A stretch of DNA of 64,000 nt from Candidatus Omnitrophota bacterium (GTDB lineage: Bacteria; Omnitrophota; Gorgyraeia; B26-G9), in assembly GCA_018817165.1 (NCBI GenBank), contig JAHITY010000118.1:6526-70525 (forward strand), written 5' to 3'. The notes below the pieces were generated by a model. It saw only the letters and a program-made list of their open reading frames with translations. It made no database searches and was not told the DNA's origin. Shown piece by piece: positions 1 through 56,668 of the stretch; the first letter of the stretch is position 1; each line of letters opens with the position of its first letter. A program made the position numbers and the translations under genes.

Positions 1-3000
1 CTGGTTCGATTCAGAATATTTCGATGACATATTCAATCAATGGCGGATCAACCTATCCTAATGTTATCGCTGCTTCTGTAAACGCATCTTTGGGGGCTTA
101 TCCATGGGCAATTCCCGACGCGATCGGCAATCAGGTGAGAGTAAGAATAACGGATACAGCTAATTCAACGGTTTATGACAGTTCTGATGCTAATTTCTCA
201 ATCAAAGGTGTATTGCATCTAGATACGCCAAATGGCGGAGAAGTGCTGGAAGTTGGCTCAAGCCGAAATATAACCTGGACAGTTACTGGTTCAATTTCCA
301 ATGTTAAATTGGAATATTCAGTTGATGCCGGGGCAACTTATCCGAATGTGATCACAGCATCTTTGAACGCGGCTTTAGGCACATATGCTTGGAGTGTGCC
401 GGATAATTTGACTACACAGGCTAGAGTGAAGATAACCAATCTATCAGATCCAACTGTATATGATCAGTCAGATGCTGATTTTGATATTATTGGTCAGCTG
501 ATTATTTCAGCGCCAAATGGCGGGGAAGTTTGGCCAGTAGGTACATCCCAAGCAATTTCTTGGGTAACCATGGGTTCAATTGTCGATGTTAAATTAGATC
601 TATCGACAAATGGCGGAGTTACTTATCCCACGGTTATAACAGCAAGCACAGCGGCGAATATTGGTTCATATAGCTGGATGATTCCGGACGCGATATCGAT
701 TGCTGCCCGGATAAAAATATCGGATATCAGTAATCCATCGGTAGTTAATGATGTATCTGACGCGAATTTCAAAATCAGAGGTAATCTGACATTAACCTAT
801 CCAAATGGCGGAGAAGTTTTGCTGATAAATGATAATCGAAATATTACCTGGACACGCTTTGGTTCAATTGTTAACGCGAGAATCGATTATTCGAAAGACG
901 GGGGAGGAACATTCCCCTACTCGATTATTGGTTCAGTAAACGCTGCATTGCAGACTTATGCTTGGAATGTGCCGGATGACCCAGGAACCTTGATCAGAGT
1001 GAAAATCGCGGACGCGGCGGATTTATCTGTATATGATGTTTCTGACGGAAACTTCATTATTCGCGGTGGATTCAGCATTATTACTCCAAATGGCGGCGAG
1101 CAATGGACAGTTAATTCAGTGCATGATATTACATGGACAACATTTGGAACGATAACGAATGTGCGTTTATCGTATTCAAGTAATAATGGTTCTAATTGGA
1201 CATTGATTACTGCTACAGTTCCTAATATTGATTTGTATTCATGGACAGTCCCGGATAGAATCTCTGAGCAATGTCTGGTAAGAGTATCCGATGTTAATGA
1301 CAGCGATGCGAATGATCTATCAAATGCCGCATTTAAAATCATTGGAACTTTGACATTGACAGCGCCAAATGGGGCAGAGCAATGGGGTGTTGCTACAGCC
1401 CAGAATATTAGCTGGACAATGAATGGAACAATCGCTAATGTGAAATTAGAATATTCAACTAATAGCGGAGCAACATATCCGAATTTGATCATCGCCTCAG
1501 CAGCCGGCGCGCCGCTAAATTATGTTTGGACAATTCCGGACGCGATTTATAATACTTTGAGAGTAAGAGTTTCTGATGTTTTGGACGTGAATGTTTATGA
1601 TACATCAGATGCTGATTTTAAAATCAAAGCTGATTTTACTTTATTGGTGCCAAATGGCGGAGAAACATGGGTAGTAAATTCCGCTCAAACCATATCCTGG
1701 ACTTCATCAGGAACAGTACCGAATATCAGACTGGATTATTCCTCTAATGCGGGTGCAAGCTGGACTGTAATATCATTGTCCCTGGCTAATGCAGGGTCAT
1801 ATTCCTGGACAGTTCCGGATGCTATTTCTAGCCAATGTAAGATCAAGGTAGCTAATGCGGCTGATACCAGTGCTTATGATGAATCAAATAATAGTTTCAA
1901 GATCAGAGGTGATTTGATCTTAACCGCGCCAAATGGCGGAGAAACATGGGCTGTGGGCGGTGTAAGGGTTATTACTTGGAATAGAGTCGGATCAATTGCT
2001 AATATATTGGTTGAATACTCAGATAATGGCGGAACAAATTTTGTGCCGATCATTGCTTCCACCCCTAATACCGGATCATATGCTTGGACAGTACCGGATT
2101 CAATTACAACTCAGGCTTTAGTGAGAATCACTAATCTTGCTGATCTAACGGTAACGGATACTTCGGCAGCGGTATTTAAAATCCAAGGCAGTTTCATGAT
2201 TAGCTCCCCAAATGGCGGCGAAGGCTGGAGAGTTGGAACTAATCAGAATATTAATTGGACCTGGAATGGAACATTACCGTTTGTTAAATTGGAATATTCA
2301 ATTAATAGCGGATCTACCTATAATTTAATAGCGGATAATTTACCGAATGTGGGAACCTATTCATGGTTAATTCCAGATGCTGTAGCCGGAACTTGTAGAA
2401 TAAAAGTATCTGATCCTAATGATTCACAGGCTTATGATATATCCAATGGTGATTTTCGGATCCGCTGCGGATTTACGCTGAGTACGCCAAATGGCGCGGA
2501 ACAATGGAGAGTCGGTTCAGTGCGTAATATTACTTGGGCCAGCGTGGGAACAGCGCCAACAGTTACTTTGCAGTATTCTCGCGATGATTTTGTAACTGAT
2601 ATCCAGCCGATTGTCAGCAATCAGGTAAATGTCGGCAGTTATGCTTGGACAATTCCGGATGCAATATCAGATAATGTGAAAGTTAAAGTACTTGATTCCA
2701 ATGATATCGGAGCTGCGGATTCTTCTAATGCTGTTTTTAGAATTACCGGAGATTTTACAGTAATTGCGCCAAATGGCGGGGAAATGTGGAATGTAAATGA
2801 TATTGAAAACATTACCTGGACCTGGCTGGGAACAATGTCCCAGGTGAGAATTGAATACTCAGTTGACGGTGGCGCAAGTTATCCGAATATTATTTCAGCA
2901 ACGAATAATGACGGAGTATATGAATGGCTTGTTCCGGATAGTATTACCGCCCAATTAAGAGTGCGGGTCAGTGATTTAGCAGATTCAACGGCTTATGATA

Positions 3001-6000
3001 CATCCAATGGCAATGCTAAGATCCGAGCGTTTTTTACAATGCTTACTCCTAATGGTTCAGAAATTATGACAGTTAACAATAGCTATGGAATCACCTGGAA
3101 TAGTGTAGGCACAGTGGCTAATGTTGATCTGCATTATTCAACAGACGATTTCTTGACTGCTAATGGGATTGTCGGCTCAACGCCAAACGATGGGGCTCAT
3201 ACCTGGACTGTTCCAGATTCAATATCAACTACAGTTAAAGTAAGAGTCAAGAGTTCGACGGATAGCGATGCTTACGATATTTCCAATGCTAATTTTAAAA
3301 TCCGAGGCGCGTTTACAGTTACTTCGCCGAATGGCGGGGAATTATGGGCAATTAATCAGGTCAGAAATATTACTTGGAACACCACTGGAACAATTGCTAC
3401 TGTAAGAATTATGTATTCAACTAATTCAGGAGCAACTTATCTAAATACAGTTACCAACAGCGCGGTTAATACTGAGACCTATGCTTGGACAGTTCCGGAT
3501 ACGGCTACAGCAAACGCTCGGATCAGAGTGCTGGATGCCGCGGATGCAACGGTGTATGATGATTCAGATGCTAATTTCAGAATGCAGGGATTCTTTACTT
3601 TGAATGCGCCAAATGGCGGGGAGTATTGGATTGTTGGCTCTAGTCATAATATTACCTGGACATGGGGCGGAACTTTAGCCAGCGCAAAACTTTCTTATTC
3701 AACAGACAGCGGCATAACTTATCCGAATGTGATTAATGCCGCAGCCCCAAATGGCGCGGGAAGCGGCGGAACATTTAATTATGCTTGGACAGTACCGGAT
3801 AATATTTCCCTAACAGTCAAAGTAAAGGTGGAAGATCCAAATGATAATACTGTATTTGATGTATCTGATGATGATCTGACTATTGGCGGACAGATTATTC
3901 TTACCAGCCCGAATGGCGGAGAACGCTGGATAACCCGAGAATCGCACCCAATTACCTGGACAACAGCGGGAACCGTTCCGATTGTGGATATTAGATATTC
4001 CAAAGATAATTTTGGATTGAATAATATCTCAATAGTCAGCGGACAAGTTAATATTAATTCATATGCTTGGAGTGTGCCGGATGACAGATCATCTACTGTG
4101 AAAGTAAGAATACTTGATCCGCGTGACCCAACCAATACCTATGATGATTCAAACGCTAATTTTAAAATCGATTATTATACTATTTCGTTTGAGATCCGTG
4201 ATTTGATCACCAATGAAGAATTGTCAACTTTAACGGTTGACGCGTCATCAAATTTAGGTGATATCTGGGCAACAGCAACCATGCCGAATAATCCAGGAGC
4301 GCCTTTAGGTTCACCAGTTACAGTTGATTTACCGTATGGCTTATGGACAGCGGTATGGTCAAAAGTTAGTTTTGGAGATAAACAGGCAAGCTTTGAAGTC
4401 AACGCGGATAAAGCAATAGATACTCTGTATATGGAAACAACAGTTATTCATATATGGCGGGCATATTCAGAAGTTACCTATGAGGCAACCAATGATGTGC
4501 TGAAAATAGCTTCCTGGCTAGAAAGAGATGGATATGCGGTATCTGGCGCGGAAACAGTAACGATTGATGTATATAATGATGATGGAGTTTTGGTACACAG
4601 CTTATTTTCCGATACTCCGAATGCCGCGGGATTTTTCAATTTAAAATGGAATGCTCCCACTGGGTTATTGCCATCAGTAGTATATACGGTTGTTACTAAA
4701 ATAACTAATGCTTCAGGCGCGGAATTTAAGACTCCGACTTCATTTAATATTACAGAAACTCAACAGCTGGTTGCTACTCAAGCAGCGATGGAAAGCATGC
4801 GTGATGTTACATTGCCGGCTTTTCAATCAGGAGTTGAAGCAACGATCAATGCGGGTATTGCTGAACAAAAAACATTGATTGATACTAAGATGACTGAGCA
4901 GACAAATATTATTGATACAAAAACAACACAAATGCAACAGTCGGTTGATGCTAGTATGACGGCTTTTGAAACCAGATCGCAGGTCGCGATTGATCAGTTA
5001 CAAGAAGGTGCTGACCAGGCAACTGCGGCTGGAGCAGAGCTGGAAACTATTGCTAAACGTCAATCAGGGGAATTGATTCTGCCGACAACCGTACTGACCG
5101 GCGGAACAGTTAATATTCGTTTTAGAATAGCTTCGGGATTAATGCCATTGATGGATGTTATTAGTTATGATGGAACAATGCTGAGAAATCAACAGATATT
5201 GACTGAATCAACATCAGTTGCTGGTTTATACGGATATGATTTGTATATTGATGGTACTCAGTTTAAACCAGGTAAAGCGTTTACAGTAGTTGTAACGGAA
5301 AATTCAACCGGAAATTTACAGGCTGGGTCTGTAATGGTTGAGTCAACATCATTAACATCGATTGAAGGTTTAGCATCGTCTATCCCTCAGGTTAAATCGA
5401 TTGCGGATCAGACTTTGCAAGCGGTTGACGCATTGAAAAATACATTAGCAACCGGAGGAGATATCGGAAAGGCGCTTTCTAGTTTACAAGATTCTGTTGA
5501 TGATCTGCCAGCTTTAATGGCTAAAGAAGGCCCCAGCGCGAAAATGGCGGAAGATATTAATGCTTTGATGGAGCGCTTACAGGCTTTTGCCGGTGAAGAA
5601 GGTTATGATATTTCAGCGATGGTTGAGGACGCATTGAGTAATTCACCGACAATGAAAGAAATCAAGAGCAGAACGGAAAGTATTAAGAGTATTGTTAATT
5701 TCTTGCAGCAGTTGTTTGAGCACAAGTTTGGCGGAATGGAAGATGAGCCAATGGTTTCAACCTCATTGTCAACTGGTAGTTTGGTGGTAAATGTGGTTGC
5801 GGCTAATCCATCGAGCACTATGTCGCAGATCACAAAGGTAAAAGTTTATTTACCTAAAGAAGTCACTCCGAATGATATAATGGATACAGGCGGATTGGAT
5901 GTTGAGTTTGACGCGAATCAATCAATATACTATGTATTTAAAGATAGAATAGAACTTGCTCCTAAAGAAGTTCGCGTATTCAAAGTTGAGATAGAAGATA

Positions 6001-6464
6001 TCTGGATTATTCCGCAGACAAGTTTGGATGTGCTTAAACTTAGAGCAACGAAACTTGCCAGTGCTCTGGAATCAACAGAGTATGCACAAGCAACTAGTAA
6101 GCTAGCTGAGAAAACATATGCAGCGGTTGATGAAGTAATTGCCAAGCAGAATGATATTACGCTGAGCCGAGAGCAGCATATTGGGGCTTATCGGGCAAAT
6201 ATTCTGATGATTGATAAGCTAAAAGCAGAACTTACAGATATGGAAAAATTGATGATTGTCAATCCCGATGAGGTAGGCGCTCTTTCACCGGCAATGACTT
6301 GGAAGATCATTATTATCGTAATACTGTTTATCGGATTGCTGGCAGTGGTATTCTTCTTTACTTGGTATCGCAAAGCTGGATTAACGCAGGATGTGCTTTC
6401 TAAAGCAAAACAGTTTTCTTTTCCTGAAGAAGGGGACACTGAAAAGGAAAAAGAAAAGAAATAG
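1..6464 (+). CDS. Giant repetitive cell-surface/adhesin-like protein. It is 5'-partial because the ORF is open to the window start. It has at least 15 tandem ~94-aa Ig-like repeats resembling Kre9/KNH-type domains, then beta-rich and coiled-coil regions, then a C-terminal TM helix with a charged KEKEKK tail.
   Basis: ORF 24..6464 stays open upstream in the same frame, and the first residues GSIQNIS fit the repeat. The repeat unit is PNGGE-W-VG-I-W-G-V-L-YS-DGG-T-Y-W-VPD-YD-SD-F-I, recurring 14 times in full with a ~282-288 bp DNA period. The repeats have diverged. The hydrophobic stretch WKIIIIVILFIGLLAVVFFFTWY lies near the C-terminus. Confidence 0.8.
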   Translation, partial: GSIQNISMTYSINGGSTYPNVIAASVNASLGAYPWAIPDAIGNQVRVRITDTANSTVYDSSDANFSIKGVLHLDTPNGGEVLEVGSSRNITWTVTGSISNVKLEYSVDAGATYPNVITASLNAALGTYAWSVPDNLTTQARVKITNLSDPTVYDQSDADFDIIGQLIISAPNGGEVWPVGTSQAISWVTMGSIVDVKLDLSTNGGVTYPTVITASTAANIGSYSWMIPDAISIAARIKISDISNPSVVNDVSDANFKIRGNLTLTYPNGGEVLLINDNRNITWTRFGSIVNARIDYSKDGGGTFPYSIIGSVNAALQTYAWNVPDDPGTLIRVKIADAADLSVYDVSDGNFIIRGGFSIITPNGGEQWTVNSVHDITWTTFGTITNVRLSYSSNNGSNWTLITATVPNIDLYSWTVPDRISEQCLVRVSDVNDSDANDLSNAAFKIIGTLTLTAPNGAEQWGVATAQNISWTMNGTIANVKLEYSTNSGATYPNLIIASAAGAPLNYVWTIPDAIYNTLRVRVSDVLDVNVYDTSDADFKIKADFTLLVPNGGETWVVNSAQTISWTSSGTVPNIRLDYSSNAGASWTVISLSLANAGSYSWTVPDAISSQCKIKVANAADTSAYDESNNSFKIRGDLILTAPNGGETWAVGGVRVITWNRVGSIANILVEYSDNGGTNFVPIIASTPNTGSYAWTVPDSITTQALVRITNLADLTVTDTSAAVFKIQGSFMISSPNGGEGWRVGTNQNINWTWNGTLPFVKLEYSINSGSTYNLIADNLPNVGTYSWLIPDAVAGTCRIKVSDPNDSQAYDISNGDFRIRCGFTLSTPNGAEQWRVGSVRNITWASVGTAPTVTLQYSRDDFVTDIQPIVSNQVNVGSYAWTIPDAISDNVKVKVLDSNDIGAADSSNAVFRITGDFTVIAPNGGEMWNVNDIENITWTWLGTMSQVRIEYSVDGGASYPNIISATNNDGVYEWLVPDSITAQLRVRVSDLADSTAYDTSNGNAKIRAFFTMLTPNGSEIMTVNNSYGITWNSVGTVANVDLHYSTDDFLTANGIVGSTPNDGAHTWTVPDSISTTVKVRVKSSTDSDAYDISNANFKIRGAFTVTSPNGGELWAINQVRNITWNTTGTIATVRIMYSTNSGATYLNTVTNSAVNTETYAWTVPDTATANARIRVLDAADATVYDDSDANFRMQGFFTLNAPNGGEYWIVGSSHNITWTWGGTLASAKLSYSTDSGITYPNVINAAAPNGAGSGGTFNYAWTVPDNISLTVKVKVEDPNDNTVFDVSDDDLTIGGQIILTSPNGGERWITRESHPITWTTAGTVPIVDIRYSKDNFGLNNISIVSGQVNINSYAWSVPDDRSSTVKVRILDPRDPTNTYDDSNANFKIDYYTISFEIRDLITNEELSTLTVDASSNLGDIWATATMPNNPGAPLGSPVTVDLPYGLWTAVWSKVSFGDKQASFEVNADKAIDTLYMETTVIHIWRAYSEVTYEATNDVLKIASWLERDGYAVSGAETVTIDVYNDDGVLVHSLFSDTPNAAGFFNLKWNAPTGLLPSVVYTVVTKITNASGAEFKTPTSFNITETQQLVATQAAMESMRDVTLPAFQSGVEATINAGIAEQKTLIDTKMTEQTNIIDTKTTQMQQSVDASMTAFETRSQVAIDQLQEGADQATAAGAELETIAKRQSGELILPTTVLTGGTVNIRFRIASGLMPLMDVISYDGTMLRNQQILTESTSVAGLYGYDLYIDGTQFKPGKAFTVVVTENSTGNLQAGSVMVESTSLTSIEGLASSIPQVKSIADQTLQAVDALKNTLATGGDIGKALSSLQDSVDDLPALMAKEGPSAKMAEDINALMERLQAFAGEEGYDISAMVEDALSNSPTMKEIKSRTESIKSIVNFLQQLFEHKFGGMEDEPMVSTSLSTGSLVVNVVAANPSSTMSQITKVKVYLPKEVTPNDIMDTGGLDVEFDANQSIYYVFKDRIELAPKEVRVFKVEIEDIWIIPQTSLDVLKLRATKLASALESTEYAQATSKLAEKTYAAVDEVIAKQNDITLSREQHIGAYRANILMIDKLKAELTDMEKLMIVNPDEVGALSPAMTWKIIIIVILFIGLLAVVFFFTWYRKAGLTQDVLSKAKQFSFPEEGDTEKEKEKK

Positions 6465-47244: not shown

Positions 47245-47511
47245 GTGGCTGTTATTATTCGTTTATCGAGACTAGGAACAAAAGGAAAACCGCATCATAA
47301 GATTGTGGTTATAGACCAACATAGACCGAGAGATGGACGTTTTATTGAAGAAATTGGTTATTATAATGCTTCGATTAAACCAACATTGATGGAAGTTAAA
47401 GCTGATCGTGCTTTATATTGGATGAGTGTTGGAGCAAAACCAACTGGAACTGTAAAAAGAATATTTAAAAATAAAAAAATTCCTTTAAATGCTAAAAAGG
47501 AGACAAAATAG
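47245..47511 (+). CDS. rpsP: Ribosomal protein S16 (GTG start)
   Basis: MAVIIRLSRLGTKGKPHHKIVV. Confidence 0.85.
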   Translation: MAVIIRLSRLGTKGKPHHKIVVIDQHRPRDGRFIEEIGYYNASIKPTLMEVKADRALYWMSVGAKPTGTVKRIFKNKKIPLNAKKETK

Positions 47512-47816
47512 TGAAGCGTGCTATTTTATTTGTTTTTGTTTTATTTATGGTTTCTACTGTTTCTGGGTGTAAGACTTTTAATCAGTTTAGTAATCAGAAC
47601 AGAGATAGTGCGGCATTAAAAGGGGAAGAGTTAAACCTTGATAGTGATCAGGCCTATCTGTTGAGTACATGGTATCATAATGCAGTTTTATCTGAAGATG
47701 TGGGTGATTATAATGCAGCAATTATGTATTATGCGAAAATCGTTGAATATTTTCCGGAAACTGAAAAAGGCAGAATGGCCAACAAAAGGCTTAATGTGCT
47801 GAATAGAGCACATTAA
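47511..47816 (+). CDS. Small lipoprotein with a TPR-like helical region, in the position usually occupied by rimM/KH-domain genes
   Basis: Lipobox-like signal with a Cys (VSGCK), 101 aa. Confidence 0.4.
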   Translation: MKRAILFVFVLFMVSTVSGCKTFNQFSNQNRDSAALKGEELNLDSDQAYLLSTWYHNAVLSEDVGDYNAAIMYYAKIVEYFPETEKGRMANKRLNVLNRAH

Positions 47817-49650: not shown

Positions 49651-52600
49651 ATGCTTATAGGGAAAAAGTTTAAAATTATCAGAAAGACACTGGCATTATT
49701 TTGCCTGTGGGGTTTTCTTGGCCTAAACAATGCACTGGCCTTTAGCTTGCTGGATTATCCTAATCCGGATAATTTTTTGAGTCCGCAGCTGAACATTTCC
49801 ATTCCGCTTTTCATCGATGATTATCAAAAAGTTACAAAAGCTCCGCGTTGGCTTAGACCGGATATCGTGGGTTTATTTGGCGGCACCGGAGGTAATATTG
49901 CCGGCAATGTTTTAAGTTTTAGTGATTTAAATCAGTTTTTAACGGAAAAATTATTTGTCAGTTTTATTATCTCACCGCATGATGATGGCGGTTCTTCGGT
50001 TATTCTGCAGAGAATGTTATCTGAATATCTCGGGTATACGCTTTCTCCCGGTGACACAAACAATATATTCGCCGGGCTGACGAGTTATTTTAAAAAGCGG
50101 GTTCTTAGAACGCGTTTTGAAGAGAAGATCTCAGGAACGCTTTTACGTGATCAGTTAGAGAAAATTATCAGCAATACTGAAGCACTGGCTAAGCCAAGGC
50201 CTTTATTTATAGATGAACAAGAAGAAAAAACAGTGAGCAAGATAACGATCGAAGGTATTGACTATCCTGTGAGTTTTGACGCAAAGAATAACCGGTTTAT
50301 TTTTGATCAGGATAAAGAAGCCGGGATTAATCAGAAGCTAATATTTGGTAAGGAGCAATTTATAATCAAGCAATATGCGGGGAAAACAAAATTGTGTTTT
50401 ATCCCTGATGAGAATGATTCAGAAGCCTTAACTTCTGACTTAAAAACGGATTCCAACTGGGTAGAGTTTAAACAGCAAATCTTGGAACTTGCCCGGAGTT
50501 TTGATCAGGAGTTTATAAACCCGAAAATCAAAACTTTACCGGGAAAGGTTATTGATATCTCTTCTGGAAGCATGGGGAATTTTTTAATTGCCGCTAAGAT
50601 GATTCAAACCGGGGCTTATGATCCTAAAAGAAAAGATAAAATAGATCAGGATAAATATCACCAGGGGATTCAGGAATTGTGTGAAATGCTGGATATTGAT
50701 AATGGCTTTGTCAGCTGTTCGACTTTTGATCCGGCAACTTTGTATGCAAAACTTGCTTCAATTGCTATTGAAAAAGATGATAAAGCTTTATTGCTGGATG
50801 GAAATAATGAACAAGCGCTAAAAGAAAACGGGATTATAATCGATAAAATGGATCGGAGCAATGGGGTATTTGACATTTATTATGCTGGTTTGGAAAATAA
50901 TAAGCGTACCAAGTTTGGTTTAAAAATTCGGGAATATATTGAAGGCTATGTATATAGAAATAAACTCGGACGGGAAGACAGCTATTCAGAAGTGAGTCTG
51001 CCTTTAGATGTTTTAGAACGATATCCGGTTACGCTCAGCCATAATCGGCTTAGTTTGAATCTAAAGATCACGAATCAGAAAATAGTTGGGCTAGAATATG
51101 TAAAAAAAAAGGAAACTGTAAAAATTGATCAAGAGCAATTAGCGGAGTTTGAATCAGACGGACAGATTATTTTTGCTTTGCCGAAAGAGATTAGTTCGGC
51201 TTCAGAGGAATCAATCCGCAGCTTACCACGATTTTATATTGATGCAAAGTCAGGGAGCTTAAATATAGTTCTCGATACTAAGGGAATAGGCGTTGGGTTT
51301 TTAATAAATGGAGTGGAGTTAAAAATAAAAGGCCGCTTGGTTATTGAGCAGACAAATATAACCGAGGGTTTGCATCACAGCGGAATTGTTGATTTTGGTT
51401 TTTTAAATAATGTTAAGCCGCGGGTTAACAAGCATAGCCTTTTAGCAATTGCCAATGCTCCTTTGTTCATGATGGGGCCAGGCAGTCAGTATACAAGTTT
51501 AATGTCGTTGTTGCTTATTCCGGAAGTAGTCGTAGCTTTAAAACAAAGGGTTGCCAGCGGTAAAGAGAGTTTATTTATTTTTAATCCCTTAAGAGACAAT
51601 GAAACAGTGGATAGTCAAAGCGTAAGGGATATTATTAGAGCTGTTGAAAAGGTAACAGATGTGAGATTCGGGGAAATATTTAATTATGCGGTAGTGAGTG
51701 ACAGCGAAGGGTTGCAGGAAGATTTTGCCAAAGCTGAAGATGCTTTTAGGGGAGCATCATCTCCGGATTATATAGCGGCAAAACAATTATATGAAAAGTA
51801 TTCTAAGATGTACGGCTTAATGGATGAGATGAAAAATAAAAAATTATCAAATGCGAGAGAAGCATCGAGTTTTTCCAAGCTGGCAAAATACTCAAGAGGC
51901 CTTATTAGTTTTGATGAAAATGATTTAGACGCGCTGATAGACCAAGGTGTGGAAGTTTATAAAACAAAAGTTATTTTAAGCTCTCGGGAAGTTCGCAAAA
52001 AAGGAAAGGCCGAGAAGGAGGAGTCGATCAGATATGATAATGCGCAGATCGCGAATATTATTGATCAAATACTCTGGAGCCGGGGAGCTTTGTTTAAACA
52101 GGATGAAAAATTAGCCAGGCTCAGGCAGAAGCTTATTGACGAAAATTTTGATAGATATCCCGAGGGACTTTACGAAGCAATCAACCGGATAAGAAAGGAA
52201 GGGCTTTTAGGATCAAAAAGCCCCGCGGCTGCCGCACGCTATATCTTTGAACGCTTACAAAAAGAGGATTTTGCTTTATCTGATCAGCAGAGCAGAGCAT
52301 TATTAGATAAGAAGGTAATCATCACAAATCTCAAGCATACGCTTTGTGAGAAAGACGGAATTACGCCAAAAATAAAAAAAGAGTTAGAGGTGTTTTTAAG
52401 GAACAATGGTAAATTGATCGTTATCAGCGGTTTTGAAGTTCAAGAAATGAAGCAAAGGCTGCTTGATTCTCTGGATAAGAATTTATGGAGTTCAATTATT
52501 TTAGTAGCTAATTATGGAACAGAGGCATGGTACTGGGACCAGCAGCAGTCAAAATTAATGAACTTATTTAATTTTCACAAGGAAGCGGCGCTTAAAGATA

Positions 52601-53280
52601 CTCAAATAGCTAAATGGCAGCAAGTAGTGGATAATACTCTGCGGGAATATGCTTTGGATAGACCGCTTAGAGTTAAAGGCCAAGACGTGGATCAAACTAT
52701 TGCGAAAGTAGAAGATCGGGCAACGATGATTGCTTTGCGCTTGAGATCGCGAGCTTTTTTGAGCAGTTTAAATGCTATTAGCGAGGTAAACAAGCGCTTA
52801 AAAGAACAAGATCTGCCTCAGGTCAAAGCTGATGGGATTTTACGTACTCCGATGCTTGAGCGTTTAAATAATATGTTTGCCAAATATGATCTGCCGATAA
52901 GCGCTGTTTTGGGTGGAACCGGGACGATTAATACAATGGTTGAAAAAGCGGCGAATAAGGGCGATGTGATTCAGCGGGTATTATCGGCGGCAATAGATAA
53001 GGGCCTGCTGTTAAGAGAAAACCTTGAGCAAATCCTGATAATGGGTAAGGGCAATTATGAAATAGCCGAAAGGCTGCATGTGCCTTGGCTGGTGTTCCAG
53101 GTCCCGCGTCAATCCACTGAGCATACGATTGAATTTAAGAAAGGATATGGGGTTGGAGGTGCTGAGATATTTTTAGAAATTCTTAATTCGGTACAGGGGG
53201 CTTTGAATTCCTCAAAAATAGATGGTAAAAGCCGGAAGGATATCCAGGATAATGCGATGTTTATTGATCAGGCTATATAG
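49651..53280 (+). CDS. Large (1209 aa) signal-anchored protein with a highly expanded CofD/YvcK (UPF0052)-like domain and a ~580-aa C-terminal extension of unknown function
   Basis: Hydrophobic N-terminus, then the ordered family motifs GLFGGTGGN, HDDGGSSV...PGDTNN, SGSMGNFL and GPGSQYTSLMSLLLIPE, separated by insertions of ~190 and ~290 aa. Confidence 0.55.
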   Translation: MLIGKKFKIIRKTLALFCLWGFLGLNNALAFSLLDYPNPDNFLSPQLNISIPLFIDDYQKVTKAPRWLRPDIVGLFGGTGGNIAGNVLSFSDLNQFLTEKLFVSFIISPHDDGGSSVILQRMLSEYLGYTLSPGDTNNIFAGLTSYFKKRVLRTRFEEKISGTLLRDQLEKIISNTEALAKPRPLFIDEQEEKTVSKITIEGIDYPVSFDAKNNRFIFDQDKEAGINQKLIFGKEQFIIKQYAGKTKLCFIPDENDSEALTSDLKTDSNWVEFKQQILELARSFDQEFINPKIKTLPGKVIDISSGSMGNFLIAAKMIQTGAYDPKRKDKIDQDKYHQGIQELCEMLDIDNGFVSCSTFDPATLYAKLASIAIEKDDKALLLDGNNEQALKENGIIIDKMDRSNGVFDIYYAGLENNKRTKFGLKIREYIEGYVYRNKLGREDSYSEVSLPLDVLERYPVTLSHNRLSLNLKITNQKIVGLEYVKKKETVKIDQEQLAEFESDGQIIFALPKEISSASEESIRSLPRFYIDAKSGSLNIVLDTKGIGVGFLINGVELKIKGRLVIEQTNITEGLHHSGIVDFGFLNNVKPRVNKHSLLAIANAPLFMMGPGSQYTSLMSLLLIPEVVVALKQRVASGKESLFIFNPLRDNETVDSQSVRDIIRAVEKVTDVRFGEIFNYAVVSDSEGLQEDFAKAEDAFRGASSPDYIAAKQLYEKYSKMYGLMDEMKNKKLSNAREASSFSKLAKYSRGLISFDENDLDALIDQGVEVYKTKVILSSREVRKKGKAEKEESIRYDNAQIANIIDQILWSRGALFKQDEKLARLRQKLIDENFDRYPEGLYEAINRIRKEGLLGSKSPAAAARYIFERLQKEDFALSDQQSRALLDKKVIITNLKHTLCEKDGITPKIKKELEVFLRNNGKLIVISGFEVQEMKQRLLDSLDKNLWSSIILVANYGTEAWYWDQQQSKLMNLFNFHKEAALKDTQIAKWQQVVDNTLREYALDRPLRVKGQDVDQTIAKVEDRATMIALRLRSRAFLSSLNAISEVNKRLKEQDLPQVKADGILRTPMLERLNNMFAKYDLPISAVLGGTGTINTMVEKAANKGDVIQRVLSAAIDKGLLLRENLEQILIMGKGNYEIAERLHVPWLVFQVPRQSTEHTIEFKKGYGVGGAEIFLEILNSVQGALNSSKIDGKSRKDIQDNAMFIDQAI

Positions 53281-53428: not shown

Positions 53429-56221
53429 ATGAAGTTGCAAAAAAACAATCTTAAAAGAAAATTTTTTTATATAATAAATTTACTTATTATCCAGGTATTT
53501 TTATTATATAATTTGGCTTTTGCGGAAAGTTTAAAAGCTGAAAGCAATTTTCTTAGCCCTTCTTTGCAGATCGGTGTTCCTAATTTTCTCACTGTTTTTG
53601 ACAGGTATAATCAGAATAATACTGACAATATAGATAGTTATTCTCTGTTTGAGCAAAAGAAATTACAAGCAGGACTGATTAAAAAAATAATCTCTGAAAT
53701 TGAGAAAAGTGATAAATTTACATCTGCTGATTTAGAAATAGTAAAAAAATTCATAAAAATCGCAGAATCTAATTATGGAGAATCAACCTTTTCCTCTGAG
53801 CCGAATGAATACTATTTTAATCATGTGCTTGAGGTTACTGAAATTCTGCTCAGACCAGATCTAAAGTTGAATCCTTCTATGGATACTGTTTGTGCTGGGC
53901 TATTGCATCGGATGCCTGATACCCGTATTTGGCAGTCATTAATGGCAGCCGGAATAGAAGATGTTTTAATTGATGAGATAGTGAGTCTTAAAAATAAATT
54001 TTTAAATCTTACAGATTTTTCTTATACAAAGATGAATTTAAAAAAAGATAGACATACTCTTAATAATTTTATGAATAATATTATACAGCAATCTGAAGAT
54101 GATTTGGGTCAAGCTGCTCCCAATATTATAAAGCTTGTCTTGGCGGATAAGCTTGCCTCAATAAGATTTGCGTCAGAAGTAGACAGGGATACCCTTGTAA
54201 AAGATATAGCTGATGTTTATGCTCCTTTGGCACATCGGATTGGGGCACAAAAATTAAAGGATAAACTTTATAATGAATCATTTCGCTTGGCGCGCCCTGC
54301 AGAATATAAACAAACTTTAAAACTGGTTGAGGCTTTTCTCGGCAAAGATTATTTTGAATTAGATGCTGATTTGCAGGTGCTGGAAGAAAAATTAAAGAGA
54401 TTTATTAAGGATAACTTTAGAGTTGATTTTACAATCGATGTTATGGTAAGGGTTAAGGGCTTGTATGAAATTTATGAAAAATTCCGCGATAGAGAAAGTT
54501 TAAATGATGTTTTGGGTATAAGAATAATATGTGATTGTTCTGCAGCAGAGCTATATCAATTTTCAGATGTAGTCCAGCAGATTGTAGGTACTTGGGATCC
54601 TAAATTGTATGACCAGAAATTTGAGAATGGACTGCAGAGCGGGATGATATTTGTAGATGTAGGCTCTGTTGATAGCTATGATGGTAATCCTTATGAAGTA
54701 CAAATATTAAACAGACAAAGTCATGAAAAAAGAGAAAGAGAATTCCCGCATTGGTCTTATAAATTAGCACAGCGGACAGGTCAAGTATTTGATACGGAAG
54801 AATATGTTCCGATTGGTGATTTTGATGATGATTTTAAGCGTGTATTTGATGGATTAAAAGATAGCGTATTTCCGATTGCTTTGGGTGCGAATGGGGAGCT
54901 TGAAATAAAGCGTTTGGCTGCTGGGTCTGTGCCTGCTGATTTGGCTGCCGCACGCTTGGTAAACCGTTTAAATGAGGATTATAAAGGGGCTAAGGTTAGT
55001 CAATGGAAAAATGGATTGTTACTTAATACACAAGATGTAGCCATGGATTATCAAATAAAGTCTAAGGATATAGTCGAAATTGTAAGCGCTCAAGGGTACT
55101 TAAAAAATGATATTAATAAAAGAACAAATTTAAGGAAAAGCGTTAAAGGATTCAGAACTCAGTTATTGCTTGCTTTAATGGATTTAGGCGTAAGTCCTGA
55201 TTCTTCAAAGATAACATCTGGAGAAATAAGGCTTAAAGAACAATTTGATTTAAGGGGCATAAAGATTACCAGTAAGGTTGTTGAGGAATTTCTAACTCCA
55301 TTTGCTATAAGTCTGGGTTTAGCAGATGTAAAAGAGCTTTATCTGGCACTGACATATTATAATCAACAAGTGAGTGTTGGCGAAGTCATTGAAGCGGCCA
55401 AAGAATCAGGGATTAAAATCATCAAAGATAATTTTTCTGCAGATGACTTTATGTTAGGACAGATTGCTAAGAAAGGGTCACTGGAAGAATTTTTTGTTAG
55501 GGTTGGAGCAGGAGAGATAACGATAAAAGATATCAAGGCAAAAATAAAAGATTTAAAGAATGGCATTAAAACTGATATTAAAAATGTCCGTTTTGATAAA
55601 GAATATAAATTTAAGCTGACTATTCCCAGGCACACAAAGAGAAGCTCTAAGGAACGGCTTAATCAACAAATGATTACAACAAGAGTAAAAAATATTAATG
55701 AGATCATAAAATCTCTTGGTTTGGAAGTTGTTGGTGGAGAAGTGAAAAGTCCGGTATCAAAAGGCAATGGTTCGATTAAAATCCAGTTTTCTGTGCTGCA
55801 TGATGATATCTTTCAAATAAATGAATTAGTCAAAAAATTTAAAAATTCTCAAAAGGTGAAGATTGATACCATTGGATTTAATGAAACTGTAGGAAGGAAG
55901 TTTGTAGTTGAGTTCTTTAATCAAGGCCAGAAACTTACGAGTTTGATTGAATATCTTGAAAATATAATATCTCAGGAAAGCAACAGCACTCAGACTATAG
56001 AGCTTGATGTTAAGAAACAGCCGCTTGATCAAGTTAAGGATGGGATTATTGAAATAACAACCACACTTCCTTCGGGACTTGATAAAAAAGCGATTACTAC
56101 GATTCTAGAAAGGATAGAAAAAGATAGAATAGCACATCAGGCAACTAGAAATGGACTTGGTCCTCAAGCCCAAAAAAAACATATCCCTGAGCTTATGAGA
56201 ATGCTCCAATTTTCAATATAA
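53429..56221 (+). CDS. Long RelA/SpoT homolog. It has a degenerate (HD to HR) hydrolase domain, a (p)ppGpp synthetase domain, a TGS domain, and an unusual N-terminal signal-anchor plus a ~120-aa leader.
   Basis: LLHRMPDT replaces HD. LVLADKLASIRF and VYAPLAHRIGAQKLKDKLYNESFRL match the hydrolase-domain helices. The synthetase motifs RVKGLYEIYEKF, DVLGIRII and EVQILNRQSHEKREREFPHWSYK are present. A TGS-like segment runs FPIALGANGELEIKRLAAGSVPADLAAARL...GAKV. Confidence 0.8.
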   Translation: MKLQKNNLKRKFFYIINLLIIQVFLLYNLAFAESLKAESNFLSPSLQIGVPNFLTVFDRYNQNNTDNIDSYSLFEQKKLQAGLIKKIISEIEKSDKFTSADLEIVKKFIKIAESNYGESTFSSEPNEYYFNHVLEVTEILLRPDLKLNPSMDTVCAGLLHRMPDTRIWQSLMAAGIEDVLIDEIVSLKNKFLNLTDFSYTKMNLKKDRHTLNNFMNNIIQQSEDDLGQAAPNIIKLVLADKLASIRFASEVDRDTLVKDIADVYAPLAHRIGAQKLKDKLYNESFRLARPAEYKQTLKLVEAFLGKDYFELDADLQVLEEKLKRFIKDNFRVDFTIDVMVRVKGLYEIYEKFRDRESLNDVLGIRIICDCSAAELYQFSDVVQQIVGTWDPKLYDQKFENGLQSGMIFVDVGSVDSYDGNPYEVQILNRQSHEKREREFPHWSYKLAQRTGQVFDTEEYVPIGDFDDDFKRVFDGLKDSVFPIALGANGELEIKRLAAGSVPADLAAARLVNRLNEDYKGAKVSQWKNGLLLNTQDVAMDYQIKSKDIVEIVSAQGYLKNDINKRTNLRKSVKGFRTQLLLALMDLGVSPDSSKITSGEIRLKEQFDLRGIKITSKVVEEFLTPFAISLGLADVKELYLALTYYNQQVSVGEVIEAAKESGIKIIKDNFSADDFMLGQIAKKGSLEEFFVRVGAGEITIKDIKAKIKDLKNGIKTDIKNVRFDKEYKFKLTIPRHTKRSSKERLNQQMITTRVKNINEIIKSLGLEVVGGEVKSPVSKGNGSIKIQFSVLHDDIFQINELVKKFKNSQKVKIDTIGFNETVGRKFVVEFFNQGQKLTSLIEYLENIISQESNSTQTIELDVKKQPLDQVKDGIIEITTTLPSGLDKKAITTILERIEKDRIAHQATRNGLGPQAQKKHIPELMRMLQFSI

Positions 56222-56263: not shown

Positions 56264-56668
56264 ATGGAAAATATAAAAACCTCTTGGCCGCAAGAAAAGG
56301 CGCTTAAACATCATAAAATTGCCTCTATCCTTATAATCATTAGCGCTATTTCTGGATTATACTTATGTCTTGATGATATTATAATTTTGGGTAATAATTT
56401 AAGCGCTTTTGTTTTTCCTTATTTATTTAATTATTTTGGCTTGTTCCTGTCATTATTTCAACTATATACGGCAATTTGTTTTCTGAACAAACAAGCCTGG
56501 GCTAGCAAAGCTATTTTATGGATTTTTTTAATCAGACTGCTTATGGGATATTATGATTTAATCGAGGTTGTCCCGGTTGTTCTTGTTCTGCCGTATTTAC
56601 TATTTATTCTTTCGGGAAAAAGATTAAATAGTTTGTTTGAAAAAAGTGCTAGTGACGTAAGTGCTTAA
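56264..56668 (+). CDS. Small polytopic membrane protein (3-4 TM helices), hypothetical
   Basis: 134 aa, hydrophobic helices, directly downstream of the RelA/SpoT-homolog gene. Confidence 0.4.
   Translation: MENIKTSWPQEKALKHHKIASILIIISAISGLYLCLDDIIILGNNLSAFVFPYLFNYFGLFLSLFQLYTAICFLNKQAWASKAILWIFLIRLLMGYYDLIEVVPVVLVLPYLLFILSGKRLNSLFEKSASDVSA

Follow-up and report, generated by a model that had tools for sequence, protein, structure and literature searches.

How a fold typical of small cytoplasmic proteins comes to be carried by a protein of 1209 amino acids (aa) that begins with an export-type leader, and whose neighbour is a RelA/SpoT homologue (RSH) with a leader of the same type, is the question raised by one gene of Candidatus Omnitrophota bacterium. 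The gene lies in a stretch of 64,000 nt (assembly GCA_018817165.1, contig JAHITY010000118.1, positions 6,526-70,525, forward), hereafter the window, and our analysis of this genome covers these 64 kb. YvcK/GlmR proteins are small cytoplasmic regulators or accessory enzymes in the supply of UDP-GlcNAc (uridine diphosphate N-acetylglucosamine), and in Firmicutes and Actinobacteria they are important for virulence and for the integrity of the cell wall; CofD and FbiA are transferases that take a phospho-group from a donor activated with guanosine diphosphate (GDP). A first-pass annotation, made from the sequence alone, had proposed a signal-anchored protein with a highly expanded CofD/YvcK domain and a long C-terminus of unknown function. 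We found that the gene product is an unusual variant of a known family.

The window has a guanine-plus-cytosine content of about 37%, and nearly all of its genes lie on the same strand. The open reading frame (ORF) is a single uninterrupted frame with an ATG start, and a 100% identical NCBI protein, named "YvcK family protein [Candidatus Omnitrophica bacterium]", was found on a 105.7-kb contig. Full-length orthologues (1179-1227 aa, 54-77% identity) were identified in three other Omnitrophota contigs (L001, L002, and L003), where they occupy the same locus, immediately 3' of rnhB. Since these orthologues share position as well as length, the gene call is sound, and the gene-calling error that the first-pass annotation had named as a danger is ruled out. 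Thus, the YvcK-like gene is a genuine and selectively maintained gene of Omnitrophota. When further orthologous loci were sought, the scan of genome_contigs returned one, and that of metagenome_contigs returned none.

The signature motifs of the CofD/YvcK superfamily (a GGGTG-type loop, DDGGS, PGDxRN, GxSxGN, and GPGSxYTS) follow one another in the expected order over about 550 residues, as FGGTGGN (residues 76-82), HDDGGSSV (110-117), PGDTNN (133-138), SGSMGNFL (305-312), and GPGSQYTSLMSLLLIPE (609-625, with GPGSQYTS at 609-616). They are invariant among the orthologues, and they reproduce, motif for motif, the series quoted in the first-pass annotation. The protein scored 52.6 bits against the Pfam family CofD (PF01933; cut-off 30, E 5e-14), with a HMMER alignment limited to residues 560-694, and a phmmer search of the PDB matched the YvcK structures 2o2z, 2hzb, and 2ppv. 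Furthermore, when compared by hhalign with an alignment of eleven canonical YvcK proteins of ~320 aa, residues 66-377 corresponded to YvcK positions 2-146 with a single gap of ~142 residues (probability 97.6%, E 3e-12), and residues 561-810, of which ~50 fall in a gap, to positions 140-324 (probability 98.8%, E 6e-17), so that positions 2-324 of YvcK were covered in two blocks.

For structure prediction with AlphaFold2, the orthologues were aligned with the matching segments of remoter relatives, and the protein was modelled as two overlapping pieces (residues 58-708 and 694-1209). The first model reached a predicted local distance difference test score (pLDDT) of 82.5 and a predicted template-modelling score (pTM) of 0.82, and its significant Foldseek matches were only UPF0052/YvcK structures (2hzb, 2ppv, and 2o2z; E 2e-6 to 4e-5), aligned over about 630 query columns with template-modelling scores (TM-scores) on target of 0.63-0.69. 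The score above the Pfam threshold, the fold, and the motifs place the protein in the CofD/YvcK superfamily, and the expanded fold proposed earlier is borne out by Pfam, by hhalign, and by Foldseek on the model alike. Its extent was misjudged, however: mapped onto YvcK by hhalign, the fold is complete, runs from residue 66 to about 810, and is broken by three lineage-specific insertions instead of the two first counted, leaving ~400 aa after it and not ~580 aa (Table 1).

The first core piece is the most conserved part of the whole protein. Among the four orthologues, 52-80% of the positions in the YvcK core pieces are invariant, compared with 25-27% in the insertions, and since the core is so much more invariant, the conserved cleft is what selection maintains. 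The insertions were confidently modelled and had no match to a solved structure in Foldseek. For the first of them (25% invariant), the pLDDT was mostly 77-96, and its beta part was present only in the clade of the window protein and in two further relatives (P0005 and P0014). Pfam searches of separate fragments (residues 1-560, 701-1209, and 881-1209) recognized neither an N-terminal CofD half nor any HAD family. With phmmer, residues 739-817 had only chance matches in the PDB (ribosomal protein S6, for example), and it was hhalign that connected this part to the C-terminus of YvcK.

Downstream of the third insertion, the model of residues 694-1209 (pLDDT 84.2, and above 90 across most of the HAD-type domain) shows the last YvcK hairpin and helix, then a linker of four to five helices, and then a HAD-type domain. 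In Foldseek, residues 885-1180 of this model matched best the atypical alpha-phosphoglucomutase 4bnd (E 1.4e-11, TM-score on target 0.71), and also phosphomannomutases (PMM1/2), trehalose-6-phosphate phosphatase, and the inosine monophosphate nucleotidase ISN1. As modelled, the domain is a HAD-IIB fold, with a Rossmannoid core and a C2B cap; searched alone, it had no Pfam HAD match. The C-terminus once described as of unknown function is accordingly the last quarter of the YvcK fold with the third insertion, a helical linker, and a HAD-IIB domain that lacks its catalytic Asp residues.

The window protein shares with HAD-IIB enzymes (eukaryote-type phosphomannomutase, 4bnd, trehalose-6-phosphate phosphatase, and ISN1) the fold, the Ser of motif II, and the Lys of motif III, but it lacks the DxD of motif I and the Asp of motif IV. 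Its motifs read N893-L-K895-H-T897 (I), S926 (II), K1103 (III), and G-K1133-G-N-Y-E (IV). Motifs II and III are retained: S926 comes after the strand 921-925, and K1103 is aligned with a Lys that is invariant in the relatives. In place of the nucleophile Asp there is Asn, and Lys stands both for the general acid/base Asp two positions on and for the metal-binding Asp of motif IV. This degenerate site is invariant in the orthologues (ITNLKHTL and IMGKGN), and all Omnitrophota copies of this combination of CofD pieces, linker, and HAD-type domain carry N-x-x-x-T as motif I, with the nucleophile changed, and have lost the Asp of motif IV. The closest sequence relatives of the domain are stand-alone proteins of ~320 aa, one of them from Candidatus Dojkabacteria, with canonical DVDET, S/TG, K, and WGD..D motifs. 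Because the catalytic Asp residues are replaced, no aspartyl-phosphate can form, and we call the domain a pseudo-HAD; from its motifs, it is probably a binding-only pseudo-phosphatase, which should not be filed as an active HAD enzyme. The ISN1 entry among the fold matches (6rme) carries a D-to-N substrate-trapping mutation at the equivalent nucleophile position, and by this analogy the Asn of the window protein would fit binding without turnover.

Table 1. Coordinates of the YvcK-like gene, its parts, and its neighbours (positions of the window unless another contig is named; residues are those of the YvcK-like protein)
Feature	Coordinates	Strand	Basis or remark
Whole gene, YvcK/CofD-like protein, 1209 aa	49651..53280	+	Single ORF; stop codon 53278-53280
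Sec-type signal-peptide-like leader, residues 1-30	49651..49740	+	Only strongly hydrophobic segment in the protein
Post-signal motif N-F-L-S-P-Q-L-N-I-S-I-P-L-F, residues 31-57	49741..49821	+	Common to the neighbouring RSH
YvcK core piece 1 (G-loop FGGTGGN, HDDGGSS, PGDTNN, RTRF), residues 66-158	49846..50124	+	hhalign to YvcK 2-83; 80% invariant, four orthologues
Insertion 1 (helix, about 8-stranded beta unit, helix), residues 159-300	50125..50550	+	Single gap between YvcK 83 and 84 (hhalign)
YvcK core piece 2 (SGSMGNFL ... TLYAKL), residues 301-371	50551..50763	+	hhalign to YvcK 84-146; 63% invariant
Insertion 2, beta-rich, about 185 aa, residues 372-558	50764..51324	+	
YvcK core piece 3 (KGRLVIEQTNIT, GPGSQYTSLMSLLLIPE, FIFNPLRDNET), residues 559-693	51325..51729	+	Pfam CofD 560-694; PDB phmmer 2o2z, 2hzb; hhalign
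Insertion 3 (long helix and loop), residues 694-744	51730..51882	+	hhalign gap relative to YvcK; helix 12-31 of the C-terminal model
YvcK core piece 4 (AKYSRG ... beta-hairpin ... IRYDNAQIANIIDQIL), residues 745-812	51883..52086	+	hhalign to YvcK C-terminus, up to 324; global hhalign agrees
Helical linker, residues 813-884	52087..52302	+	Four or five helices in the model; conserved in giant relatives
Predicted HAD-IIB-fold, probable pseudo-phosphatase, residues 885-1180	52303..53190	+	Foldseek on the model; motif comparison
Low-confidence tail ending -Q-A-I, residues 1181-1209	53191..53277	+	pLDDT < 50; orthologues end -QAI, -QAI, -PAI
Neighbouring gene, divergent long RSH, 930 aa, same leader type	53429..56221	+	Pfam HD_4, RelA_SpoT, weak TGS; context, not proven partner
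Small membrane protein	56264-56668; L002 9288-9659; L003 14840-15244; L004 13240-13644; L005 12943-13341	+ (window)	

The relatives of the protein indicate where this architecture belongs. An exhaustive HMMER search of 1.84 billion representatives recovered 128 proteins at E <= 1e-3, of which only 9 reached E <= 1e-30, and among the GTDB species representatives a single one has an orthologue, in line with the first-pass description of the architecture as unusual. The best relatives are proteins of 1.5-6 thousand amino acids (kAA), and all those with a name are called "CofD family protein [Candidatus Omnitrophota]"; canonical YvcK proteins of ~320 aa matched the profile only at E 1e-7 to 1e-4. 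A local domain map showed, inside the longer chains of these giant relatives, the same three or four CofD pieces, linker, and pseudo-HAD in the same order. Therefore, the window protein is one copy, standing on its own, of a "CofD + linker + pseudo-HAD" cassette that is otherwise embedded in multi-enzyme proteins of Omnitrophota, and we infer its origin from this cassette. A Pfam census of 19 giant relatives listed ARMT1/DUF89 phosphatase, LbH, active HAD/PMM, alpha-phosphohexomutase domains I-III, NUDIX, FBPase_2, and cytidylate kinase, and a PRK/uridine-kinase domain was also present in one relative (P0034); these sets share a consistent theme of sugar-phosphate and nucleotide-sugar metabolism. 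A decaying fragment of a giant gene was also considered as an origin and rejected, because four genomes carry an intact ORF and 52-80% of the core positions are invariant.

Most of the giant CofD-bearing relatives start with signal-peptide-like N-termini. In many of the giant relatives (P0039, P0040, P0045, P0047, P0090, and P0094) the string IHIQD(A/V)H or YYIQDAH was found after the leader, ~60-90 residues from the N-terminus, and it appears to be a second conserved N-terminal element of these long proteins (P0004-P0047 set). Long multi-enzyme proteins have been described from the same phylum (West-Roberts et al., 2023, 10.1101/2023.11.21.568195; 10.64898/2026.06.07.730766); for Omnitrophota proteins of 10 kAA or more, the 2026 preprint (10.64898/2026.06.07.730766) describes "multi-enzyme metabolic clusters" that contain modules of sugar metabolism. 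The nearest homologues of the window protein are segments of 1.5-6 kAA proteins. The catalogues, which start at 10 kAA, make no mention of CofD/YvcK or of RelA/SpoT, whereas the window gene is a compact, single cassette at a fixed housekeeping locus.

The leader of the window protein satisfies, by inspection, the usual description of a Sec signal peptide, with a basic n-region (K5, K6, K8, R11, and K12), an h-region of ~13 aa, and a c-region NN-A-L-A with a small-x-small site (A28-L-A30), after which F31 follows; this layout is conserved in the orthologues and in the RSH clade. It also resembles the leaders of the PilQ secretin (ORF 34704) and of another exported protein (ORF 16974) of the same window, and because of this likeness the leader is probably a cleavable Sec signal peptide rather than a transmembrane anchor. 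Of the earlier term "signal-anchored", the hydrophobic N-terminal leader stands, and the anchor is not established, since the n/h/c layout with A-x-A fits a cleavable peptide. The N-terminus of the neighbouring RSH is of the same type (...YNLAFA, then ES), and ~10 residues after the putative cleavage site both proteins share a motif LSPxΦxΦ...F (NFLSPQLNISIPLF in one protein and NFLSPSLQIGVPNF in the other).

Several comparisons bear out this likeness. Across 11 leaders of the two families, the Ala at -1 and L43, S44, P45, and F54 are invariant. A regular expression of the motif had all of its matches (7/7) in these two families in the window and L001-L003, and a hidden Markov model (HMM) of the motif found the same two families only when L001-L005 were searched; overall, the leader was confined to them within 253 proteins and about 160 kb of DNA. 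With an HMM built from the RSH leaders alone, the CofD proteins were the top non-self matches (E 2e-4), and the reverse test gave E 2e-3. In the window genome, the pairwise local score of the two leaders was 54, compared with 23.9 +/- 4.6 for shuffles, and was reached by none of 2000. At the DNA level, the leaders showed no similarity above codon shuffles; a recent duplication is therefore excluded, and likeness at the protein level alone remains. A profile of the 11 leaders had no match at E <= 10 among 5.8 billion proteins, the profile being too short for a database of that size.

The next gene is indeed an RSH with a similar leader, as the first-pass annotation had stated and as Pfam and the leader comparison confirm. 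Both its HD_4 and RelA_SpoT domains score above their cut-offs. In the window protein and five clade relatives (P0135-P0139; 31-35% identity, 949-976 aa), the hydrolase dyad is His-Arg instead of His-Asp, and in the synthetase of the window protein RxK, D..R, and EVQI are kept and the acceptor-binding motif G-Y-x-S-x-H is lost. This RSH clade is small and very divergent (31-35% identity, 930-1006 aa), with a Sec-like leader and the LSP motif in every member. It is also represented in two deeper relatives (L004, 10001-12901; L005, 10001-12889).

In the window, the two genes are flanked by rpsP-trmD-rplS-rnhB upstream and by MTHFS-rny-ymdB after the RSH. Whether they form a unit was judged from six loci, four with the CofD gene and two with the RSH only (L004 and L005). 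The two RSH-only loci conserve the block glgA-coaE-rho-rpmE-prfA-x-prmC-murA-rpsP-x-trmD-rplS-rnhB-RSH-(134 aa)-MTHFS-rny-ymdB, in which nothing comes between rnhB and the RSH and the CofD gene is missing. After the CofD gene of L001 come an IS30-like fragment and other genes, and not an RSH. Since L004 and L005 have the RSH at this locus and lack the CofD gene, the RSH is an old resident, and the CofD cassette was inserted beside it in one sub-lineage; the leader of the resident RSH may have been copied by the cassette gene at that insertion. The module with the RSH gene that had been proposed earlier, with co-occurrence as its check, therefore probably does not hold in that sense: a conserved two-gene operon or module is not supported, and a common targeting or tethering of both proteins is possible. 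Between the two genes lies an AT-rich spacer of 148 bp that contains promoter-like sites, and scans for promoters and terminators over 47-59 kb gave results close to shuffle expectation.

Other features of the locus and of the window were recorded. In L001, a 210-aa ORF with an HTH_38 (IS30-type) domain, apparently truncated, lies 3' of the YvcK-like gene (5243-5875) and suggests a transposon-mediated rearrangement at this site. A murA-like gene and mreBCD-pbp2-rodA are found downstream of the YvcK-like gene in L001, and in the window murA lies 2.6 kb upstream. Immediately 3' of the RSH in all five RSH loci (5/5), a multi-pass membrane protein of 123-134 aa, with no Pfam family, is a candidate partner of the leader-bearing proteins. 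The YvcK-like protein ends in -QAI (53266-53277), the RSH in -FSI (56207-56218), and this membrane protein in -VSA, so that a C-terminal -[A/S]-[A/I] occurs in 3/48 ORFs of the window. The members of the RSH clade (window protein and P0135-P0139) end in -SI or -AI, and many giant CofD-bearing Omnitrophota proteins end in -AA, -SA, or -AI. Such endings could be a recognition tag (e.g., for a PDZ-type protease or a sorting step) or a product of chance.

The slot between rpsP and trmD, which is usually occupied by rimM or a KH-domain gene, holds in the window a 101-aa ORF (47511-47816, +) with no Pfam match and a lipoprotein-like N-terminus (...FMVSTVSGC); in L004 and L005, an ORF of similar size (105-109 aa), also with no Pfam match, lies there. 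Far upstream, a type IV pilus / type II secretion cluster (12975-36602, +) comprises three PilB/GspE-like ATPases, PilT, two PilC/GspF, several pseudopilins, PilM/N/O, and the PilQ secretin, and two C-terminal PilZ-like segments (in ORF 12975 and ORF 15258) are nearly the same in sequence; this cluster could export signal-peptide-bearing proteins. At the start of the window, an ORF of at least 2146 aa (24-6464, +), which may begin before it, encodes ~25 tandem repeats of ~90 aa ("PNGGE.W...W.."), a coiled region, and a C-terminal transmembrane helix, and its product is probably a surface adhesin or a coat protein, similar to those that Omnitrophota are reported to have. Scans of the window against Rfam and for tRNA genes found nothing. 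A defence or toxin system was considered and rejected, every neighbour being a housekeeping gene.

What the protein may do was approached through its best-known relatives. From its first strand to its last helix it has the fold of YvcK/GlmR (2o2z, 2hzb, 2ppv, and 2q7x), and it shares with them the G-loop, DDGGS(S/T), PGDxxN, GxSxGN, GPGSxYTS, and an Arg aligned with R301. In Bacillus subtilis, GlmR binds UDP-GlcNAc through Y265 and R301 (PMC7525490), and Listeria GlmR was reported to make UDP-GlcNAc from uridine triphosphate and N-acetylglucosamine-1-phosphate, with D40, D41, and N198 required (PMC10128056). The window protein retains, as D111 and D112, the Asp pair of DDGGS reported as catalytic in Listeria GlmR (PMC10128056). 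Its R794 (in IRYDN) falls in the alignment on the Arg of vRH(D/N), and in the numbering of 2o2z this Arg is R301; these equivalences rest on that numbering and on the alignment, not on the B. subtilis and Listeria sequences, and the B. subtilis numbering is presumed to be that of 2o2z. Because the G-loop, DDGGSS, PGDxxN, and GPGSxYTS are near-invariant and an R301-equivalent Arg is present, we infer binding of the nucleotide-sugar type for the core.

On this basis, the YvcK-like core would bind a nucleoside diphosphate (NDP)-sugar, or a nucleoside triphosphate (NTP) together with a sugar-1-phosphate, as GlmR does with UDP-GlcNAc or CofD with its GDP-activated donor, and might either sense this ligand or perform a slow nucleotidyl- or phospho-transfer. 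The pseudo-HAD would be a binding or regulatory domain that holds, without hydrolysis, either a sugar phosphate or the phospho-sugar moiety of the ligand bound by the core, and the insertions would supply lineage-specific surfaces. The protein would then act in the handling of glycan precursors (sugar nucleotides) at the envelope, the leader holding it at or beyond the inner membrane. We have high confidence in the architecture as described. The function, argued from family analogy and domain fusions, is put forward tentatively and at somewhat below even probability, and architecture and function taken together are slightly favoured.

Several observations weigh against this functional proposal. 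The NCBIfam YvcK model (TIGR01826) scored 47.2 bits, far under its cut-off of 196, so that the subfamily threshold was not reached. The Tyr equivalent to Y265 is either Y717 or Y747, as the third insertion falls there; the presumed counterpart of N198 (the Asn of ...TSxxPNLL, by an inferred mapping) is a Leu in ...TSLMSLLL; and the position of R794 is Gly in the aligned giant relatives (P0004-P0010 and P0023), so that this contact is not a constant of the family. The genes yvcJ (rapZ) and whiA, neighbours in the canonical setting, are absent at the locus, and no RapZ or WhiA was recognized when the rest of the window was read by eye, without a Pfam scan. Finally, the leader, by the positive-inside rule and its A-x-A, predicts export to the periplasm, where UDP-sugars and NTPs are not expected, in conflict with a role of the cytoplasmic type. 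Regarding the face of the membrane at which the protein acts, rule-of-thumb topology points outside, and the ligands and a TGS-bearing RSH with the same leader point inside.

The simplest alternative, that of an ordinary family member, either a true CofD/FbiA of coenzyme F420 synthesis or a plain GlmR orthologue that is merely long, has the names on its side (CofD in Pfam and "YvcK family protein" at NCBI), and automated annotation has indeed already recognized the CofD/YvcK domain. We consider it highly improbable. The window protein is not a GlmR orthologue, as subfamily threshold, yvcJ/whiA synteny, size (1209 against ~320 aa), and architecture all differ, with ~380 aa in three insertions, a linker with a fused pseudo-HAD, and a signal-like leader, besides the loss of the presumed N198 equivalent and the weak matches of canonical YvcK proteins to its profile. 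It is not an F420 CofD either: identity to CofD/FbiA (3c3d and 6uvx) is 12%, the NCBIfam scan gave no match to the CofD equivalog at E <= 1, no cofC/E/G/H-like F420 genes were found in the 64-kb window, and CofD has neither the extra domains nor the leader. The insertions, the pseudo-HAD fusion, the link with the cassette of giant proteins, and the shared leader did not turn up in literature searches, which were not aimed at these points.

The other alternatives turn on the leader and on the neighbouring RSH. If the leader is a cleavable Sec signal, both proteins may leave the cytoplasm for the periplasm or the cell surface, or may enter a host or prey cell through machinery like that of type II secretion or the type IV pilus, and the YvcK-like protein could be an exported enzyme or effector that binds or cleaves host nucleotide-sugars, scavenging like the periplasmic UDP-sugar hydrolases or draining the cell-wall precursors of its prey. 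The basic n-region, the h-region of 13-16 aa, and the A-x-A of the leaders, their likeness to PilQ and to another exported protein of the window, the pilus and secretion genes of the window, and the signal-peptide-like N-termini of most giant relatives speak for such export, and a 2026 preprint reports that a signal peptide or transmembrane helices are predicted for 94% of the very long proteins of Omnitrophota, "metabolic" multi-enzyme ones among them (10.64898/2026.06.07.730766). Moreover, Omnitrophota have been proposed as predators or parasites (PMC10066038), and two of the four enzyme-type domains of the gene pair (HAD and RSH hydrolase) are degenerate, which fits binding or altered chemistry better than housekeeping. 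However, the RSH is a long, TGS-bearing form, encoded within a housekeeping block that is deeply conserved, and this points to a protein linked to ribosomes in the cytoplasm, and so to a leader type that does not mean export; the periplasm offers no substrate supply for NDP-sugar chemistry; and no delivery system is linked to the gene. We regard export as a possible account, of fairly low probability.

In a further alternative, that of a tether facing the cytoplasm, the hydrophobic segment and LSPxΦxΦ...F would form a re-entrant hairpin or an uncleaved anchor that keeps the whole protein on the cytoplasmic face, where it would respond to UDP-GlcNAc and regulate, like GlmR, the synthesis of cell-wall precursors. 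With such a tether, the leaders of both proteins would be compatible with domains that depend on nucleotides. Both hydrophobic stretches (about 13-16 aa) are too short for helices that span the bilayer, and murA upstream in the window and the murA-like gene with mreBCD-pbp2-rodA 3' in L001 suit a role in the cell wall. Nevertheless, short h-regions are typical of cleavable signal peptides, the charges (+5 before the hydrophobic stretch and acidic after it) favour translocation of the C-terminal part, and such a tether has no precedent; we consider it unlikely. More doubtful still is a functional module of the two genes, in which, for example, alarmone synthesis at the membrane would be made to depend on the sugar-nucleotide status, the common leader and tail holding the two proteins together. 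In three of the four loci the two genes are neighbours with the same orientation, their shared leader motif is statistically supported, and the -[A/S]-type C-termini extend to the following membrane protein; against this stand the RSH without the CofD gene in L004 and L005, the CofD gene without an RSH neighbour in L001, the spacer between the genes, and a leader that could have been copied at the insertion of the cassette.

No new mechanism is demonstrated; the protein is a tidy example of the puzzle of "cytoplasmic-type enzymes behind a signal peptide", which has been discussed, and not resolved, for the long Omnitrophota proteins (West-Roberts et al., 2023; 10.64898/2026.06.07.730766). It shows that the YvcK fold tolerates ~380 inserted residues, fusion to a phosphomannomutase-like pseudo-enzyme that probably binds a ligand, and an export-type leader. 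If it were a membrane-tethered analogue of GlmR, this would be a modest extension of a known family. A bolder and rather improbable reading is that the leader, the LSPxΦxΦ(x)3-4F motif, and the C-terminal -[A/S]-I together form a lineage-specific targeting or tethering signal that brings nucleotide-handling proteins of the cytoplasmic type to the envelope or outside; if true, it would imply alarmone-type and sugar-nucleotide chemistry, or high-affinity capture of metabolites, outside the cytoplasm of a putatively predatory nanobacterium, for example on or in its prey.

In brief, the window protein is a compact and tractable form of a cassette that is otherwise buried in Omnitrophota proteins of several thousand residues, and it could help experiments to explain why metabolic enzymes of a "cytoplasmic" kind are found behind signal peptides in these bacteria. 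An enzyme of the stringent-response type with a signal peptide is no less odd than the YvcK-like protein itself, and the presence of the same leader motif on the RSH sharpens the question, as either an enzyme of this type is exported or these leaders are not export signals.

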